From: Escherichia phage teqskov
DNA: 64,000 nt
Sequence record: NC_054934.1
Reading direction: 5' to 3' (one strand)
The stretch's first letter is position 1; each line of letters opens with the position of its first letter. Below the pieces are notes generated by a model. The model saw nothing but the letters and a program-made list of their open reading frames with translations. It was not told the origin of the DNA and made no database searches. This document shows, one piece after another, positions 17,829-23,310 of the stretch. Made by a program: the position numbers and the translations under genes.

Positions 17829-18767
17829 ATGTACAATATTAAATGCCTGACCAAAAACGAACAAGCTGAAATTGTTAAACTGTATTCAAGTGGTAATTAC
17901 ACTCAGCAGGAATTAGCTTATTGGAAGGATGTATCGGTTGACACAATCCGTCGTGTTTTGAAAAATGCTGAAGAAGCTAAACGCCCTAAAGTTACTATTA
18001 GCGGTGATATTACAGTTAAAGTTAATAGCGATGCAGTTATTGCTCCAGTTGCTAAATCTGACATTATTTGGAATGCATCTAAAAAATTCATTTCAATTAC
18101 TGTTGATGGCGTAACTTATAACGCAACTCCTAATACTCATTCAAACTTCCAGGAAATTCTTAATCTGCTTGTAGCGGATAAGCTGGAAGAAGCTGCGCAA
18201 AAAATTAATGTTCGGCGCGCTGTTGAAAAATATATTTCCGGCGATGTTCGAATTGAAGGCGGAAGCTTGTTCTATCAAAATATCGAATTACGGTCTGGTT
18301 TAGTTGATCGTATTCTCGATTCGATGGAAAAAGGTGAAAACTTTGAATTTTATTTTCCGTTCTTGGAAAATCTGCTGGAAAACCCAAGCCAGAAAGCGGT
18401 ATCTCGACTCTTTGATTTCTTGGTAGCAAACGATATTGAAATTACAGAAGATGGTTACTTCTATGCTTGGAAAGTAGTTCGTGACAACTACTTTGACTGT
18501 CACTCAAACACCTTTGATAACAGTCCTGGTAAAGTAGTTAAAATGCCGCGTACTCGTGTGAATGACGATGATACACAAACTTGTTCTCGTGGTCTGCATG
18601 TGTGTTCTAAATCTTATATTCGTCACTTTGGCAGTTCAACCAGCCGAGTTGTAAAAGTTAAAGTACATCCACGTGATGTAGTATCAATTCCGATTGATTA
18701 CAACGATGCTAAAATGCGTACCTGCCAATACGAAGTAGTTGAAGACGTTACTGAACAATTTAAATAA
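17829..18767 (+). CDS. rIIB: rIIB protein
   Basis: 312 aa (T4 RIIB length); directly downstream of rIIA. Confidence 0.88.
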   Translation: MYNIKCLTKNEQAEIVKLYSSGNYTQQELAYWKDVSVDTIRRVLKNAEEAKRPKVTISGDITVKVNSDAVIAPVAKSDIIWNASKKFISITVDGVTYNATPNTHSNFQEILNLLVADKLEEAAQKINVRRAVEKYISGDVRIEGGSLFYQNIELRSGLVDRILDSMEKGENFEFYFPFLENLLENPSQKAVSRLFDFLVANDIEITEDGYFYAWKVVRDNYFDCHSNTFDNSPGKVVKMPRTRVNDDDTQTCSRGLHVCSKSYIRHFGSSTSRVVKVKVHPRDVVSIPIDYNDAKMRTCQYEVVEDVTEQFK

Positions 18768-18799: not shown

Positions 18800-18994
18800 A
18801 TGTTAGGTTATCAAGCACGAGTAAAAGAAGAATACGATCAATTAATGCTCAAAATTAATGCACTGAGCAAATTTTTAGAAAGCACAAAGTTTCTAACGGT
18901 TAGTGCAGTTGAGCAAGAACTGCTGCTTTCACAGTTCATCTCAATGAAATCTTATGCTGAGTGTCTAGAGAAAAGAATCGCACAATTCAAATAA
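18800..18994 (+). CDS. hypothetical protein (64 aa)
   Basis: ATG with AGGAAA RBS; bracketed by two terminator hairpins. Confidence 0.5.
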   Translation: MLGYQARVKEEYDQLMLKINALSKFLESTKFLTVSAVEQELLLSQFISMKSYAECLEKRIAQFK

Positions 18995-18997
18995 AAT

Positions 18998-19020
18998 AAG
19001 GGCTTCGGCCCTTTTGTTTT
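18998..19020 (+). terminator. rho-independent terminator
   Basis: AAGGGCTTCGGCCCTT followed by TTTTGTTTT. Confidence 0.7.
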
Positions 19021-19058
19021 AAGAGAAATTATGATTCCGACATAAAAGGAAAGTTTAA

Positions 19059-19616
19059 ATGCAGAAAACGAATCCGGGTTTGCAGAGACTATTTCAGATT
19101 CCGTCATTTACCCTATCGAACAGTGACTTGACTAGTGAAATGAAGGTCAAAATTGCTGATACTGCAAGATACTCTTTAAAACAAAACCCGAACCAGGATA
19201 AAGCAGAGGTTATCGAAAGATGCCGTATCGCTGTGTACGCAGAGTTTTTTGTGGCAGATTGGCTAAGCGGATATGTCAATAAAGGTCAAGAAGATGTTAA
19301 TGACCCGTATACATACGCATGGGATGTATTGGCGCATCCAAGATACTGCGGGCTTCGTGTAGAAGTTAAGACACACCAAACTGACTCACGTTGGATTTCT
19401 GTAACAACAGGATGCAGCGGAGAGTATCCATACGGTTCTGGAATAAATCTAGGGCCCATTCTAAATCATCAAGTCGCTGACTGTATAATTATATTCAACA
19501 CTAAAGAAATTCATCCAGGTGTCATCCAGTACACTCCGAAGTTCATCGGTGATAGAGAAGACCTTCGTAAGGTTGTAAGAAAAAGCAACTACAACGGATG
19601 GTATCTTTCCATTTAA
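19059..19616 (+). CDS. denB: endonuclease IV DenB
   Basis: 185 aa (T4 DenB length); synteny after rIIB; sequence recognised. Confidence 0.8.
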   Translation: MQKTNPGLQRLFQIPSFTLSNSDLTSEMKVKIADTARYSLKQNPNQDKAEVIERCRIAVYAEFFVADWLSGYVNKGQEDVNDPYTYAWDVLAHPRYCGLRVEVKTHQTDSRWISVTTGCSGEYPYGSGINLGPILNHQVADCIIIFNTKEIHPGVIQYTPKFIGDREDLRKVVRKSNYNGWYLSI

Positions 19617-19632
19617 AAAATTTCACAAAACA

Positions 19633-19662
19633 GTTTACATACCACAAGGACCGTGGTACTAT
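19633..19662 (+). promoter_or_regulatory. early promoter
   Basis: GTTTAC -35, 18-bp spacer, TGGTACTAT; shares downstream leader with promoters at 23272 and 39649. Confidence 0.6.
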
Positions 19663-19696
19663 ACAACTATCAACTGATACGGATTTGGAGAATAAA

Positions 19697-19960
19697 ATGA
19701 AATTTAAATTTTATTACGCTAAACATAAAATAACTGATGAGTTTGTGTCAGTTGAATATTCTAGCGATGATGAAGGCATGATTTATACTCGCTTAGGATT
19801 ATCACATTGGGAGTCTGATCAGCCTTATTTTTCAACTCCTGAAGAAATTACACGCTTAGTTAATGGTCATATGAATGACCACTGGAATGTAATTCTTTCA
19901 GATAGTCTTAAAGCGGCTATTAATAGTAATGAAATGAAAATCGCTGAGATTGAACTATGA
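19697..19960 (+). CDS. hypothetical protein (87 aa)
   Basis: ATG at 19697 with GGAGAA RBS downstream of promoter (ORF-track start 19598 runs through the promoter). Confidence 0.5.
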   Translation: MKFKFYYAKHKITDEFVSVEYSSDDEGMIYTRLGLSHWESDQPYFSTPEEITRLVNGHMNDHWNVILSDSLKAAINSNEMKIAEIEL

Positions 19961-20043
19961 GTTCATTGTGGTGGTGTTTTGTTTGGTTAATTAGTATTCC
20001 ATTAATTTGTTTAACATTTACTTTTGTGATGAGGTTATTATGA
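19957..20043 (+). CDS. micro-ORF, hydrophobic peptide (28 aa)
   Basis: ATGA overlap with upstream stop; single predicted TM segment. Confidence 0.35.
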   Translation: MSSLWWCFVWLISIPLICLTFTFVMRLL

Positions 20044-20138
20044 AAATTTTGAATTCTGTGCTTATTGCTTGTGCGTGGTGGGTTGCACAAGTTTCAGCGG
20101 TAGTAGTTGGTATTCACATTTATTACGAATATTTTTAA
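20040..20138 (+). CDS. micro-ORF, hydrophobic peptide (32 aa)
   Basis: ATG overlapping previous stop; TM-like sequence. Confidence 0.35.
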   Translation: MKILNSVLIACAWWVAQVSAVVVGIHIYYEYF

Positions 20139-20145
20139 AAAAGTT

Positions 20146-20175
20146 GTTTACAAGACTGTTCCTCTGTGGTACTAT
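20146..20175 (+). promoter_or_regulatory. early promoter
   Basis: GTTTAC -35, 18-bp spacer, TGGTACTAT; spacer is complementary to the downstream SD (CTGTTCCTC / GAGGAACAG). Confidence 0.55.
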
Positions 20176-20203
20176 TACCCTATCAACTACGGAGGAACAG
20201 AAA

Positions 20204-20317
20204 ATGAAAAAGATTGTTAAAGCTATATGGAATGTAGTTATAATACTAACAGTTTTGTGTATATTCCCAATCGTTTTAATGATTGATGTATTAAACGTTT
20301 ACTTTGGATTTATGTGA
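20204..20317 (+). CDS. small membrane peptide (37 aa)
   Basis: ATG with GGAGGA RBS; single TM helix. Confidence 0.45.
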   Translation: MKKIVKAIWNVVIILTVLCIFPIVLMIDVLNVYFGFM

Positions 20318-20324
20318 GGAAAAT

Positions 20325-20522
20325 ATGAAGCGTAAACGCAGTGCTTTTACATTTATTGAATGGTTTTTCGATAATATTTTTCCGGCTTTATTCATTTTCA
20401 TGCTGATTTTTGCCTTAGGTTCAGTTGTAGTTGGAATCTATTTGATGGCGGTAGTCGGAATGGATATTCATCAAAATGGTTTAAAATCTGTGGTTGAAAC
20501 AATTTGGAATGGTGTAAAATGA
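20325..20522 (+). CDS. small membrane protein (65 aa)
   Basis: ATG with GAGGA RBS; long hydrophobic segment. Confidence 0.45.
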   Translation: MKRKRSAFTFIEWFFDNIFPALFIFMLIFALGSVVVGIYLMAVVGMDIHQNGLKSVVETIWNGVK

Positions 20523-20629
20523 TGAATTTACTAAACATTTGGTTTTATATTCTTATGTTTTACATTGGCGCAAATTTCCCATATTGGATGGGATGGTCAA
20601 CAACTGCATTTGGATTTTATACTCCTTGA
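20519..20629 (+). CDS. micro-ORF, hydrophobic peptide (36 aa)
   Basis: ATGATG start overlapping previous stop; aromatic-rich TM-like sequence. Confidence 0.35.
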   Translation: MMNLLNIWFYILMFYIGANFPYWMGWSTTAFGFYTP

Positions 20630-20637
20630 GGTGAATT

Positions 20638-20853
20638 ATGAAAAGTTTTAAAGATGTAAAAGTTGGTGAAATTTTCTGTTTAGATAATGGTGATCAGTTA
20701 ATTCGTATTTCACCTCTTAAGAGCACTAGCGAGAAACCGACAGTTAATGCTACTTTAGCAAATAATAGTAATGAACGTTTCTGTATTGAAAATGATACTG
20801 AAACTTACACTGTAGAAGAATTCTGGGAATTGAGCGTCGACTGCGACGATTAA
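20638..20853 (+). CDS. hypothetical protein (71 aa)
   Basis: ATG with GAGG RBS; hydrophilic. Confidence 0.5.
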   Translation: MKSFKDVKVGEIFCLDNGDQLIRISPLKSTSEKPTVNATLANNSNERFCIENDTETYTVEEFWELSVDCDD

Positions 20854-20859
20854 TTTAAT

Positions 20860-20882
20860 GGCCGCGTGTATTCATGCGGCCT
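20860..20882 (+). terminator. possible hairpin terminator (weak)
   Basis: GGCCGC...GCGGCC stem, poor T-tract. Confidence 0.35.
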
Positions 20883-20912
20883 TGGAGTAGAAAATAATTA
20901 GAGGAAATTAAA

Positions 20913-21356
20913 ATGAAATACATGACTGTTACTGATCTGAACAACGCAGGCGCTACTGTTATTGGTACAATCAAGGGTGGTAAGTGGTTTTTGGGAACTC
21001 CGCATAAAGATATTTTATCTAAACCTGGATTTTACTTTTTAGTAAATGAATTCGATGGTTCATGCGTATCCGCACGATTTTATGTGGGTAATCAGCGTTC
21101 TAAGCAAGGATTCAGCGCAGTTCTAAGTCATATTCGTCAACGCCGGTCTCAACTTGCGCGTACTATTGTAAATAACAATGTTCCATACACAGTATTTTAT
21201 CTGCCTGCTTCTAAGATGAAACCTCTGACGACAGGATTTGGTAAAGGTCAGTTAGCTTTGGCGTTTACTCGTAATCATCATTCTGAGTATCAAACACTTG
21301 AAGAAATGAACCGTATGTTGGCTGATAACTTTAAATTCGTTTTGCAGGCATATTAA
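20913..21356 (+). CDS. ndd: nucleoid disruption protein Ndd
   Basis: 147 aa (T4 Ndd about 151 aa); N-terminus [23 protein letters not shown] recognised; followed by stp and ac as in T4. Confidence 0.8.
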
Positions 21357-21436
21357 TGAGTAATTTCCACAACGAACATGTGATGCAGTTTTATCGTAAC
21401 AATCTTAAAACTAAAGGCGTCTTCGGACGCCAGTGA
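21356..21436 (+). CDS. stp: Stp peptide (26 aa)
   Basis: [26 protein letters not shown] recognised as T4 Stp; TAATG overlap with ndd. Confidence 0.85.
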
Positions 21437-21443
21437 GGAAAAT

Positions 21444-21602
21444 ATGAATATCGCAAAATTATTAGGAGTTATTTCATTTATTTGTTGGATAGTAGCATGT
21501 GTTTTAACTATCTGTATTGATGCCAGCAGTGTGTTTTCACAAGCTTTAGCCCAGGGTATGTGTGCATATTTAACATTTGTGTTGTTATCTACTAATGATT
21601 AA
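21444..21602 (+). CDS. ac: Ac (acridine sensitivity) small membrane protein
   Basis: 52 aa hydrophobic ORF immediately after stp, size and position as T4 ac. Confidence 0.6.
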   Translation: MNIAKLLGVISFICWIVACVLTICIDASSVFSQALAQGMCAYLTFVLLSTND

Positions 21603-21736
21603 GAAAATCTTGGGCTATTCACTAGCCCTTGCTACTTTATTGGTAGCGTTATATTACGGAATAATGTTCGGATTAATTCAAGTCGTGCTTTTCATTTCTG
21701 ATGTTATTATGGCACTACATTCACTAGTATGGTAAA
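21596..21736 (+). CDS. small membrane peptide (46 aa)
   Basis: ATG overlapping ac stop; hydrophobic. Confidence 0.4.
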
Positions 21737-21739
21737 TTT

Positions 21740-23068
21740 ATGCAACTGAATAATCGCGATTTAAAAAGTATCATTGATAATGAAGCATTGGCTTATGCTA
21801 TGTACACGGTTGAAAATCGTGCTATCCCAAATATGATTGACGGATTTAAGCCAGTCCAACGATTTGTTATTGCTCGAGCTCTTGATTTGGCACGAGGAAA
21901 TAAAGATAAGTTTCACAAACTTGCTTCTATTGCAGGTGGTGTAGCTGACCTTGGATATCATCATGGTGAAAACTCTGCACAAGATGCAGGTGCTTTGATG
22001 GCTAACACTTGGAATAATAATTTTCCTCTGTTAGATGGTCAAGGAAACTTTGGTTCTCGTACCGTCCAAAAAGCAGCAGCAAGTCGTTATATTTTTGCTC
22101 GTGTAAGTAAAAATTTCTATAACGTATATAAAGATACTGAATATGCTCCGGTACATCAAGATAAAGAACACATTCCGCCTGCTTTCTATTTACCTATTAT
22201 TCCTACTGTTCTTCTTAATGGCGTTTCCGGTATTGCAACTGGTTATGCAACTTACATTCTTCCTCATAGTGTTTCTTCTGTCAAGAAAGCTGTACTGCAA
22301 GCTCTTCAAGGAAAGAAAGTAACTAAACCGAAGGTAGAATTCCCAGAATTTCGTGGTGAAGTCGTTGAAATTGATGGGCAATATGAAATTCGTGGAACAT
22401 ATAAGTTTACTTCACGAACTCAAATGCATATCACTGAGATTCCGTATAAGTATGATCGTGAAACTTATGTGAGTAAAATCTTAGACCCACTTGAAGATAA
22501 AGGCTTCATTACATGGGATGATGCTTGTGGTGAGCATGGTTTTGGCTTTAAAGTTAAATTCCGTAAAGAATATTCTTTGAGCGATAATGAAGAAGAACGC
22601 CATGCAAAAATTATGAAAGACTTCGGGTTGATTGAGCGTCGTTCTCAGAATATTACGGTTATTAATGAGAAAGGAAAACTACAAGTTTACGATAACGTAG
22701 TCGATTTAATTAAAGACTTTGTTGAAGTTCGTAAAACTTATGTCCAAAAACGAATTGATAACAAAATCAAAGAAACTGAATCAGCTTTTCGTTTAGCCTT
22801 TGCCAAGGCGCATTTCATTAAGAAAGTAATTTCAGGTGAAATTGTTGTACAGGGTAAAACTCGTAAAGAACTGACCGAAGAACTTTCTAAAATTGAGATG
22901 TATTCTTCTTATGTTGATAAACTAGTTGGTATGAATATTTTTCATATGACTTCTGATGAAGCAAAGAAACTTGCTGAAGAAGCTAAAGCTAAAAAAGAAG
23001 AAAACGAATATTGGAAAACTACTGATGTAGTTACAGAATACACCAAAGATTTAGAGGAAATCAAATGA
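21740..23068 (+). CDS. 52: DNA topoisomerase II medium (GyrA-like) subunit gp52
   Basis: 442 aa (T4 gp52 length); synteny stp-ac-52-motA. Confidence 0.9.
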   Translation: MQLNNRDLKSIIDNEALAYAMYTVENRAIPNMIDGFKPVQRFVIARALDLARGNKDKFHKLASIAGGVADLGYHHGENSAQDAGALMANTWNNNFPLLDGQGNFGSRTVQKAAASRYIFARVSKNFYNVYKDTEYAPVHQDKEHIPPAFYLPIIPTVLLNGVSGIATGYATYILPHSVSSVKKAVLQALQGKKVTKPKVEFPEFRGEVVEIDGQYEIRGTYKFTSRTQMHITEIPYKYDRETYVSKILDPLEDKGFITWDDACGEHGFGFKVKFRKEYSLSDNEEERHAKIMKDFGLIERRSQNITVINEKGKLQVYDNVVDLIKDFVEVRKTYVQKRIDNKIKETESAFRLAFAKAHFIKKVISGEIVVQGKTRKELTEELSKIEMYSSYVDKLVGMNIFHMTSDEAKKLAEEAKAKKEENEYWKTTDVVTEYTKDLEEIK

Positions 23069-23214
23069 GTCCATTCATAGGTATTACAAGCGCTGCATTA
23101 GTATCCGGTAGCATTTTACTGGCGGGTTTAGGTGTTGTTCCAGCCGTAGCAGGAGGTCTTCTTGCGTTCGGCATTCAACGTGTTATCATGACAGTTATCA
23201 CAGTCATGCAGTAA
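23065..23214 (+). CDS. small membrane peptide (49 aa)
   Basis: ATGA overlap with gp52 stop; Gly/Ala-rich hydrophobic sequence; followed by strong terminator. Confidence 0.45.
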   Translation: MSPFIGITSAALVSGSILLAGLGVVPAVAGGLLAFGIQRVIMTVITVMQ

Positions 23215-23219
23215 TTTTA

Positions 23220-23247
23220 GGGAGAGCCGAGGCTCTCCCTTTTTTTA
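23220..23247 (+). terminator. rho-independent terminator
   Basis: GGGAGAGCCGAGGCTCTCCC followed by TTTTTTT. Confidence 0.8.
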
Positions 23248-23310
23248 TTTCAAAAATTTTTTCACAAAACGGTTTACAACCAAAGCATACTGTGGTACTA
23301 TACAACTATC
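23243..23310 (+). repeat. about 68-bp promoter cassette repeat, copy A
   Basis: Near-identical (1 indel, 1 mismatch) to 39621..39687. Confidence 0.8.
23272..23301 (+). promoter_or_regulatory. early promoter for motA
   Basis: A/T-rich upstream tract, GTTTAC -35, 18-bp spacer, TGTGGTACTAT. Confidence 0.65.

Follow-up and report, generated by a model that had tools for sequence, protein, structure and literature searches.

Five micro-ORFs between denB and ndd of Escherichia phage teqskov as T4 ndd.x genes for predicted early membrane microproteins

Between denB and ndd, the 64,000-nucleotide (nt) stretch of Escherichia phage teqskov analysed here (NC_054934.1; hereafter the window) carries a run of five consecutive micro open reading frames (ORFs), all on the + strand and all starting with ATG. 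We find that these ORFs are almost certainly real coding genes and orthologues of the ndd.x genes of phage T4, and the account that we favour, at a probability of roughly 60%, is that they are early accessory genes of T4 type for membrane microproteins, arranged in two promoter units. The comparative evidence identifies all five as selected coding genes, though proteomics misses them and annotation pipelines often drop them. The array itself is already known: an initial annotation made from the letters of the window had implied an overlooked feature, whereas the ORFs are named genes in T4, T4T and T2 with PHROG and Pfam families, and, having been named T4 genes for decades, they carry limited weight as a discovery.

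Results

Coding genes of the T4 ndd.x families

The run proposed in the initial annotation, with products of 28, 32, 37, 65 and 36 amino acids (aa), was recovered at the same positions:

19957–20043, + strand: ndd.6, 28 aa; predicted single transmembrane (TM) segment; phrog_8851 (E 3e-17)
20040–20138, + strand: ndd.5, 32 aa; predicted single TM segment; GAGG Shine–Dalgarno (SD) sequence; phrog_5011 (E 4e-26)
20204–20317, + strand: ndd.4, 37 aa; predicted single TM segment; GGAGG SD sequence; phrog_3098 (E 1e-20)
20325–20522, + strand: the 65-aa gene (ndd.3 of T4T; ndd.3 plus ndd.2a of NC_000866); DUF7248; phrog_2401 (E 3e-30)
20519–20629, + strand: ndd.2, 36 aa; aromatic-rich; phrog_4135 (E 6e-24)

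Each of them has, as had been proposed, either a start/stop overlap or a ribosome-binding site. ATGA stop/start overlaps lie at 19957 (with an upstream 87-aa ORF), 20040 (ndd.6/ndd.5) and 20519 (65-aa gene/ndd.2), and SD sequences occupy positions −9 to −6 of 20040 and of 20325 (GAGG) and −13 to −9 of 20204 (GGAGG).

The window is a Tequatrovirus (T4-like) genome in which the T4 early direction corresponds to the + strand. A megablast search of positions 19900–20700 (801 nt) against phage records returned 499 matches, nearly all from Tequatrovirus, at 80–99% identity, 497 of them at ≥90%. The closest nucleotide match to the micro-ORF region is phage Manna, at 97.9%, and the phage collection holds no identical record. 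In T4T these ORFs bear the names ndd.6, ndd.5, ndd.4, ndd.3 and ndd.2, and they are also named in T2 and in the T4 reference NC_000866. PHROG profile matches span each of the five peptides end to end (E 1e-17 to 1e-30); the 65-aa protein matches Pfam DUF7248 (PF23906) over residues 6–63 with 71.9 bits (gathering threshold 27; E 4e-20), and the Ndd.4 family is Pfam Phage_T4_Y16N (PF26889), a label seen on relatives. That such genes easily escape gene callers was borne out by existing records, in which ndd.6 is unannotated in T6, OES_C-1, ECML-363 and Manna, ndd.5 in T6 and OES_C-1, and ndd.4 in RB3. Word-indexed protein searches with the 65-aa protein and Ndd.4 returned close Tequatrovirus relatives only, and the former found only 5 loci in IMG/VR; the population sample was hence built from individual phage records. 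The 65-aa ORF is present in 493 records, Ndd at ≥80% identity likewise in 493, and the ORF is all but universal in the genus. We rejected the idea that the five peptides are paralogues, phmmer finding no significant matches between families.

The 673-nt micro-ORF stretch is 41% T, so that hydrophobic translations alone are unpersuasive: T-rich frames give hydrophobic peptides, and the five could be read as non-functional chance ORFs in leader/promoter DNA that merely expresses ndd, a reading with which the lack of detected proteins and of any knock-down effect (below) would agree. Against this stand the length and density of the frames, the selection on them and their relatives in other phages, and we regard it as extremely improbable. 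Of 5000 shuffles of the stretch, only 0.2% (probability ≤0.002) contained five or more ATG ORFs with a length of 28 aa or above, and none attained its 89% ORF coverage; a chance origin of the five-ORF array is excluded. In an alignment of the window with 12 other Tequatrovirus genomes, the Nei–Gojobori ratio of nonsynonymous to synonymous substitution (dN/dS) in the annotated frames was 0.08 for ndd.6, 0.09 for ndd.5, 0.08 for the 65-aa gene and 0.12 for ndd.2, and values of about 0.1 were confined to these frames, stops filling both alternative ones. Polymorphic sites fall mostly at codon position 3 (10/13 in ndd.5, 21/30 in the 65-aa gene and 13/21 in ndd.2), and four of the five ORFs are free of indels, the exception being a 2-nt insertion at the extreme end of ndd.6 in one metagenomic genome.

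Same-length homologues about 50% identical occur in other genera, where they too sit between denB and ndd. Ndd.6 has a 28-aa Mosigvirus homologue (14/28 identical; dN/dS 0.15) that overlaps a homologue of the 87-aa ORF, the latter having a dN/dS of 0.10 against Mosigvirus. Homologues of Ndd.4 occur in Dhakavirus (dN/dS ≤0.13) and Karamvirus, with weaker matches from Jiaodavirus and a Pseudomonas Jiangsuvirus; those of the 65-aa protein come from Jiaodavirus, Karamvirus and metagenomic T4-like contigs, and those of the 36-aa peptide from Karamvirus and one metagenomic contig. Across genera, pairs gave dN/dS values of 0–0.55 with synonymous sites saturated (proportion of synonymous differences, pS, 0.56–0.79), ndd itself giving 0.26. 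Mosigvirus, Karamvirus and Jiaodavirus have conserved the ATGA overlaps, and the 4-nt overlap of the 65-aa gene with the next gene recurs in Karamvirus, Jiaodavirus and metagenomic contigs. In the window, as in Karamvirus, Jiaodavirus and two metagenomic T4-like contigs, 7–10 nt separate the Ndd.4 gene from the DUF7248 gene 3′ of it, a conserved adjacency that suggests a functional pair. The set of families is mosaic between genera, and in an Acinetobacter Lazarusvirus relative denB abuts ndd with no array between them. Frames, order and overlaps are thus conserved in related phages; together with purifying selection and cross-genus homologues, this upholds the initial proposal of genuine small genes for TM-like peptides.

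A split gene and variable start codons in T4 records

In T4, the 65-aa gene should count as a single gene. Compared with T4T and the window, the reference NC_000866.4 lacks a single G, at about position 166,625, after the ATGAA of this gene, and because of that absence it is split there into ndd.3 (26 aa in a shifted frame; a PHROG singleton) and ndd.2a (40 aa), whereas other T4-labelled records encode a protein identical to the window's over all 65 residues. ndd.3 and ndd.2a are one 65-aa gene and the 26-aa ‘ndd.3’ is an artefact, the absent G reflecting either a mistake in the reference sequence or a mutation of the strain. Start codons also differ between records. The upstream ATG that begins a 42-aa ndd.4 in the T4 reference is ACG in the window, which makes the 37-aa form the conserved one. 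The first ATG of the 36-aa gene (ndd.2) is ATA in 3 of the 13 genomes, so that the true start is probably the second ATG, at 20522, giving a 35-aa product whose start would overlap the stop of the 65-aa gene.

Two early promoters and translational coupling

The early promoter that the initial annotation placed inside the run was confirmed by promoter scan and by alignment with the T4 record X75802, and another lies upstream, after denB. The elements that bound the proposed transcription units are as follows:

19633–19662, + strand: early promoter P1, after denB; GTTTACA, 17 nt, TG-TACTAT; aligns with X75802 1017–1053
19697–19960, + strand: 87-aa soluble ORF; phrog_2390; its TGA overlaps the ndd.6 ATG
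20146–20175, + strand: early promoter P2; GTTTACA, 17 nt, TG-extended TACTAT, then CTATCAACT
20638–20853, + strand: ndd.1, 71 aa, soluble; phrog_2183; last gene of the proposed P2 unit, not among the five
20860–20881, + strand: GC-rich hairpin between ndd.1 and ndd; maps to the stem_loop annotated in T4 at X75802 2009–2030

Every base of P2 matches the promoter marked in X75802, and T2, T6 and Manna have conserved it too; P1 is nearly identical to it. The same 9-mer, CTATCAACT, stands just 3′ of the −10 element at 19664–19672 and at 20177–20185; it has been kept in T2, T4 and T6 and may belong to a T4 early-promoter or start-site consensus. The presence of ndd.1 qualifies the described location of the run: it does lie between the denB-proximal gene and ndd, yet not directly before ndd, since ndd.1 intervenes.

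On this arrangement, P1, a sigma-70-type early promoter, would transcribe the 87-aa ORF, ndd.6 and ndd.5, and P2, of the same type, would transcribe ndd.4, the 65-aa gene, ndd.2 and ndd.1 up to the GC hairpin; within each unit, the 4-nt stop/start overlaps would hold expression together by translational coupling. The clearest candidate for such coupling is ndd.6, which has no strong SD sequence of its own and whose ATG, in all genomes read, overlaps an upstream ORF's stop codon. In T4 the body of the 87-aa ORF has been lost by an in-frame deletion, leaving an 8-codon remnant (MKIAEIEL*) with its SD sequence and the ATGA onto the ndd.6 start, and in T2 and RB3 an unrelated 68-aa ORF replaces the 87-aa ORF with the same MKIAEIEL* remnant kept. 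The poor SD sequence and the retention of overlap and remnant fit a need of ndd.6 for translational coupling to the upstream ORF.

Membrane character of the peptides

The best 19-residue Kyte–Doolittle means are 2.31 for Ndd.6, 2.17 for Ndd.5, 2.96 for Ndd.4, 2.71 for the 65-aa protein and 1.29 for Ndd.2, set against about 0.45 for the flanking 87-aa and 71-aa ORFs. To judge from sequence, the five products are very likely to be membrane-inserted. The N-termini of Ndd.5 (MK-), Ndd.4 (MKK-) and the 65-aa protein (MKRKR-) are basic, and this charge distribution suggests a single-pass topology with the N-terminus inside (N-in); in Ndd.6 the sole charge is the C-terminal Arg26. A lipoprotein reading of Ndd.5, in line with its old ‘outer membrane protein’ label, was rejected: the L-I-A-C at residues 8–11 leaves only 10 residues before the Cys and the hydrophobic helix runs on past it, and a TM anchor is far more likely.

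In an AlphaFold 2 model of the 65-aa protein (predicted local distance difference test score, 80), residues 4–17 and 19–64 form helices and the hydrophobic residues span 17–45, a model compatible with one TM helix running into a helical tail. The protein has the DUF7248 architecture of basic N-terminus, one TM helix and C-terminal GLKSxVExIWxG tail. In alignments of DUF7248 members the TM residues vary, whereas the tail, I-x-x-x-G-L-K-S-V-V-E-T-I-W-N-G, is nearly invariant; the Ndd.4 family, for its part, retains its aromatic/Asn C-terminus and an Asp directly following the TM segment. At E≤1e-3, an exhaustive DUF7248 profile search gave 27 representative clusters, which are mostly family proteins of 47–76 aa and include four repeat proteins of 820–976 aa as well as two fragments or chimeras. 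We rejected the four long proteins as homologues, taking their repeated ETVWNGIK-like motif for a resemblance and not homology. The DUF7248 tail VVETIWNGVK resembles a unit repeated 5–10 times (for example, IETVWNGIKSFF) in long tape-measure-like proteins, a likeness that is probably motif convergence.

The position of the conserved residues bears on whether the peptides might be lysis-timing, holin-like or type-I-toxin-like permeabilisers acting in host shut-off or lysis control. Their size and hydrophobicity do resemble those of type I toxins and pinholin-like peptides, and many small T4 early genes are host-lethal when cloned (Kutter et al.). In the 65-aa protein, however, conservation lies in the extramembrane tail and not in the TM segment, which argues for a specific extramembrane interaction over generic membrane damage or a generic pore. 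The promoters are of early type and the genes lie far from t, e, rI and rIII; the five peptides match no holin or antiholin family in Pfam, PHROG or NCBIfam; type I toxins (TisB, Hok, Ldr and Ibs), like AcrZ and MgrB, appeared in NCBIfam only as sub-threshold noise (E≥0.1); and deletion mutants, which retain about 50% of the burst, have no reported lysis phenotype. The lysis-timing role suggested in the initial annotation is disfavoured, and permeabilisation in general very unlikely. A PDB sequence search with the 65-aa protein, the sole peptide searched, returned nothing meaningful, and Rfam covariance models gave no matches at E≤1 across 19000–21800.

The experimental record in T4

In time-resolved omics of T4, transcripts of all ndd.x genes were classed as ‘early’ (Table S2, PMC9697503), and Ndd.1 was detected as an early protein (PMC9697503). 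In a genome-wide knock-down with CRISPRi-ART dCas13d, ndd.2, ndd.2a, ndd.3, ndd.4, ndd.5 and ndd.6 were all scored ‘Not Fit’ (PMC11879866). The sa-delta-9 deletion, which runs from 52.1 through denB, is viable with about 50% of the wild-type burst and abolishes the stimulation of host phospholipid synthesis by T4, and the overlapping rII-delta-DD2 deletion loses the stimulation of phosphatidylglycerol (PMC6071114). The stimulating function has been placed no more precisely than between genes 52 and rIIB, and the genes behind it are listed as an open question (Kutter et al. 2018, PMC6071114). The ndd.x genes are accessory: their loss or knock-down is without phenotype on laboratory hosts, in lysis or in plating, yet they are under purifying selection in nature.

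Genes that cost nothing to lose in single-phage laboratory infections could serve superinfection exclusion or competition between phages, early membrane peptides blocking DNA entry or envelope steps of later phages as Imm and Sp do. The early promoters, the predicted inner-membrane location and a gene content that is variable and mosaic between genera, as is typical of conflict genes, would all agree with such a role. Pfam and PHROG searches, however, related none of the five peptides to Imm or Sp, the ndd.x families being the only matches, and no similarity to any exclusion or defence family emerged, PADLOC defence models giving no matches at E≤1. T4 exclusion is, moreover, genetically explained by imm and sp. 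The suggestion in the initial annotation that the peptides act in exclusion is thus unsupported, and we consider it unlikely.

Genomic neighbourhood

The array stands in T4-like gene order among the following genes:

17829–18767: rIIB
18800–18994: denB.1-type ORF, 64 aa, between rIIB and denB; called denB.1 in T4T
19059–19616: denB
20913–21356: ndd
21356–21436: stp
21444–21602: ac, 52 aa; phrog_2501
ending at 21735: 52.1, 46 aa; Pfam DUF7396; overlaps ac
21740–23068: gene 52

With rIIA, rIIB, denB.1, denB, ndd, stp and ac, this neighbourhood is rich in host-conflict genes, and the peptides might accordingly be imagined to neutralise membrane-acting abortive-infection systems, as rIIA/rIIB act against RexAB. 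Genes dispensable on laboratory hosts yet conserved would suit counter-defence, as would the absence of the array from the Acinetobacter Lazarusvirus relative, which suggests host-specific targets. Adjacency to rII is, however, also simply the conserved T4 gene order, no known anti-defence family is matched and no phenotype has been reported; we hold this role to be distinctly unlikely.

Several further features of the locus deserve record. The 64-aa denB.1-type ORF matches Pfam PF21825, labelled ‘crAss001_48 related protein’ in the local Pfam copy and ‘Sequestin’ in precomputed annotations. The window's Ndd (147 aa) is 100% identical to that of phage vB-Eco-KMB22 and about 92% identical to the 151–152-aa Ndd of most Tequatroviruses. 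The small-membrane-peptide theme extends past ndd and stp to ac and 52.1 (21444–21735). Beyond gene 52, on whose stop codon it begins (ATGA), lies a Gly/Ala-rich hydrophobic ORF of 49 aa (phrog_3487; 23065–23214), after which come a terminator hairpin and its T-run (about 23221–23250) and then an early-type promoter (GTTTACA ... TGGTACTA); from denB to the gene after 52, at least eight single-helix microproteins are encoded.

Discussion

Our analysis points to the ndd.x array as a set of T4-type early accessory genes, and we infer membrane insertion, topology, pairing and target from the features set out above. The products would be single-pass microproteins that insert in the host inner membrane soon after infection; if the 65-aa protein is N-in, its conserved 20-residue C-terminal tail would be periplasmic, and Ndd.4 and the 65-aa protein would probably act as a pair. 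They could then bind or modulate host envelope proteins, or affect membrane or lipid homeostasis, under particular hosts or conditions. Set against the rival functions, such host-envelope modulation is a tentative preference, somewhat short of even odds.

Several observations weigh against this account. None of the five proteins was detected by mass spectrometry in T4, which the authors attribute to small size, naming Ndd.4 (P39249, 5 kDa) as too small for liquid chromatography–mass spectrometry (PMC9697503), and we found no T4 ribosome-profiling data in the literature. The claim that each peptide is dominated by a TM-like stretch holds for four of them (2.2–3.0) and is borderline for the 36-aa peptide (1.29), which is aromatic-rich with zero charged residues. 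Within the genus, ndd.4 has a dN/dS near 1, calculated from just 10 variable sites, despite being the most widely conserved family across genera, and no Ndd.5 homologue was found outside Tequatrovirus among the 8 other genera examined. Individual phages also carry lesions: in one T2 record (LC348380), codon 33 of the 65-aa gene is a nonsense codon; Shigella phage Sf25 fuses the N-terminus of Ndd.4 in frame to the C-terminus of the 65-aa protein; and through a deletion of about 341 bp T4_583L (MZ375356) lacks P2 and ndd.4, together with the 3′ end of ndd.5 and the N-terminal half of the 65-aa gene. That such natural or laboratory lesions exist implies that selection is conditional. Finally, the interval of about 3.4 kb behind the phospholipid phenotype also contains denB, ndd, stp, ac and 52.1.

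Within the reading of the array as early accessory membrane-microprotein genes, the Ndd.4/DUF7248 pair and the coupled ndd.6/ndd.5 pair are candidates for early T4 genes that alter host membrane lipid synthesis or the envelope. A more specific version, in which Ndd.4 and the DUF7248 protein, joined in some lineages by the 36-aa peptide, would form a hetero-oligomeric membrane module that stimulates phospholipid/phosphatidylglycerol synthesis or otherwise reprogrammes a host envelope machine, is in both forms together highly doubtful.

Known systems offer likenesses of several degrees. Bacterial regulators of the AcrZ/MgrB/MgtS type and toxins of the TisB/Hok/Ibs type share a length of 28–65 aa, one TM helix and short charged flanks with the five peptides, with no similarity in NCBIfam or Pfam; this likeness in size and helix to small membrane regulators and type I toxins is a functional analogy. 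T4 Imm and Sp (exclusion) and T, RI and RIII (lysis control) are likewise early or membrane-associated, small and envelope-acting, but they are encoded at different loci, have no sequence similarity to the peptides, and are the proteins to which the exclusion and lysis phenotypes are already assigned. Nearer by, T4 Ac (51–52 aa) and gp52.1 (46 aa) belong to the same size class, with a single hydrophobic helix, early-region genes and dispensability; no relationship of their sequences to those of the five peptides was detected. Ac alters how permeable the envelope is to acridines, a genetic phenotype that the ndd.x genes do not have, and a preprint proposes that this neighbouring 52-aa protein acts on AcrAB-TolC. 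The families of the array itself (DUF7248, Phage_T4_Y16N and PHROGs 8851, 5011, 3098, 2401 and 4135) have no assigned function, and the PHROG labels ‘outer membrane protein’ and ‘periplasmic protein’ are inherited predictions. The match is closest to T4 ndd.6–ndd.2 (T4p275–T4p270 in NC_000866; T4Tp277–273 in T4T), which have the same position between denB and ndd.1/ndd, the same order and the same lengths. The window differs from T4 in its full 87-aa ORF 5′ of ndd.6, where T4 has the 8-codon remnant, and from the T4 reference in the intact 65-aa gene and the ACG that precludes the 42-aa ndd.4; against T4T, each peptide shows 0–3 amino-acid differences (Ndd.4 and the 36-aa peptide have 3 each), and both early promoters are shared with T4.

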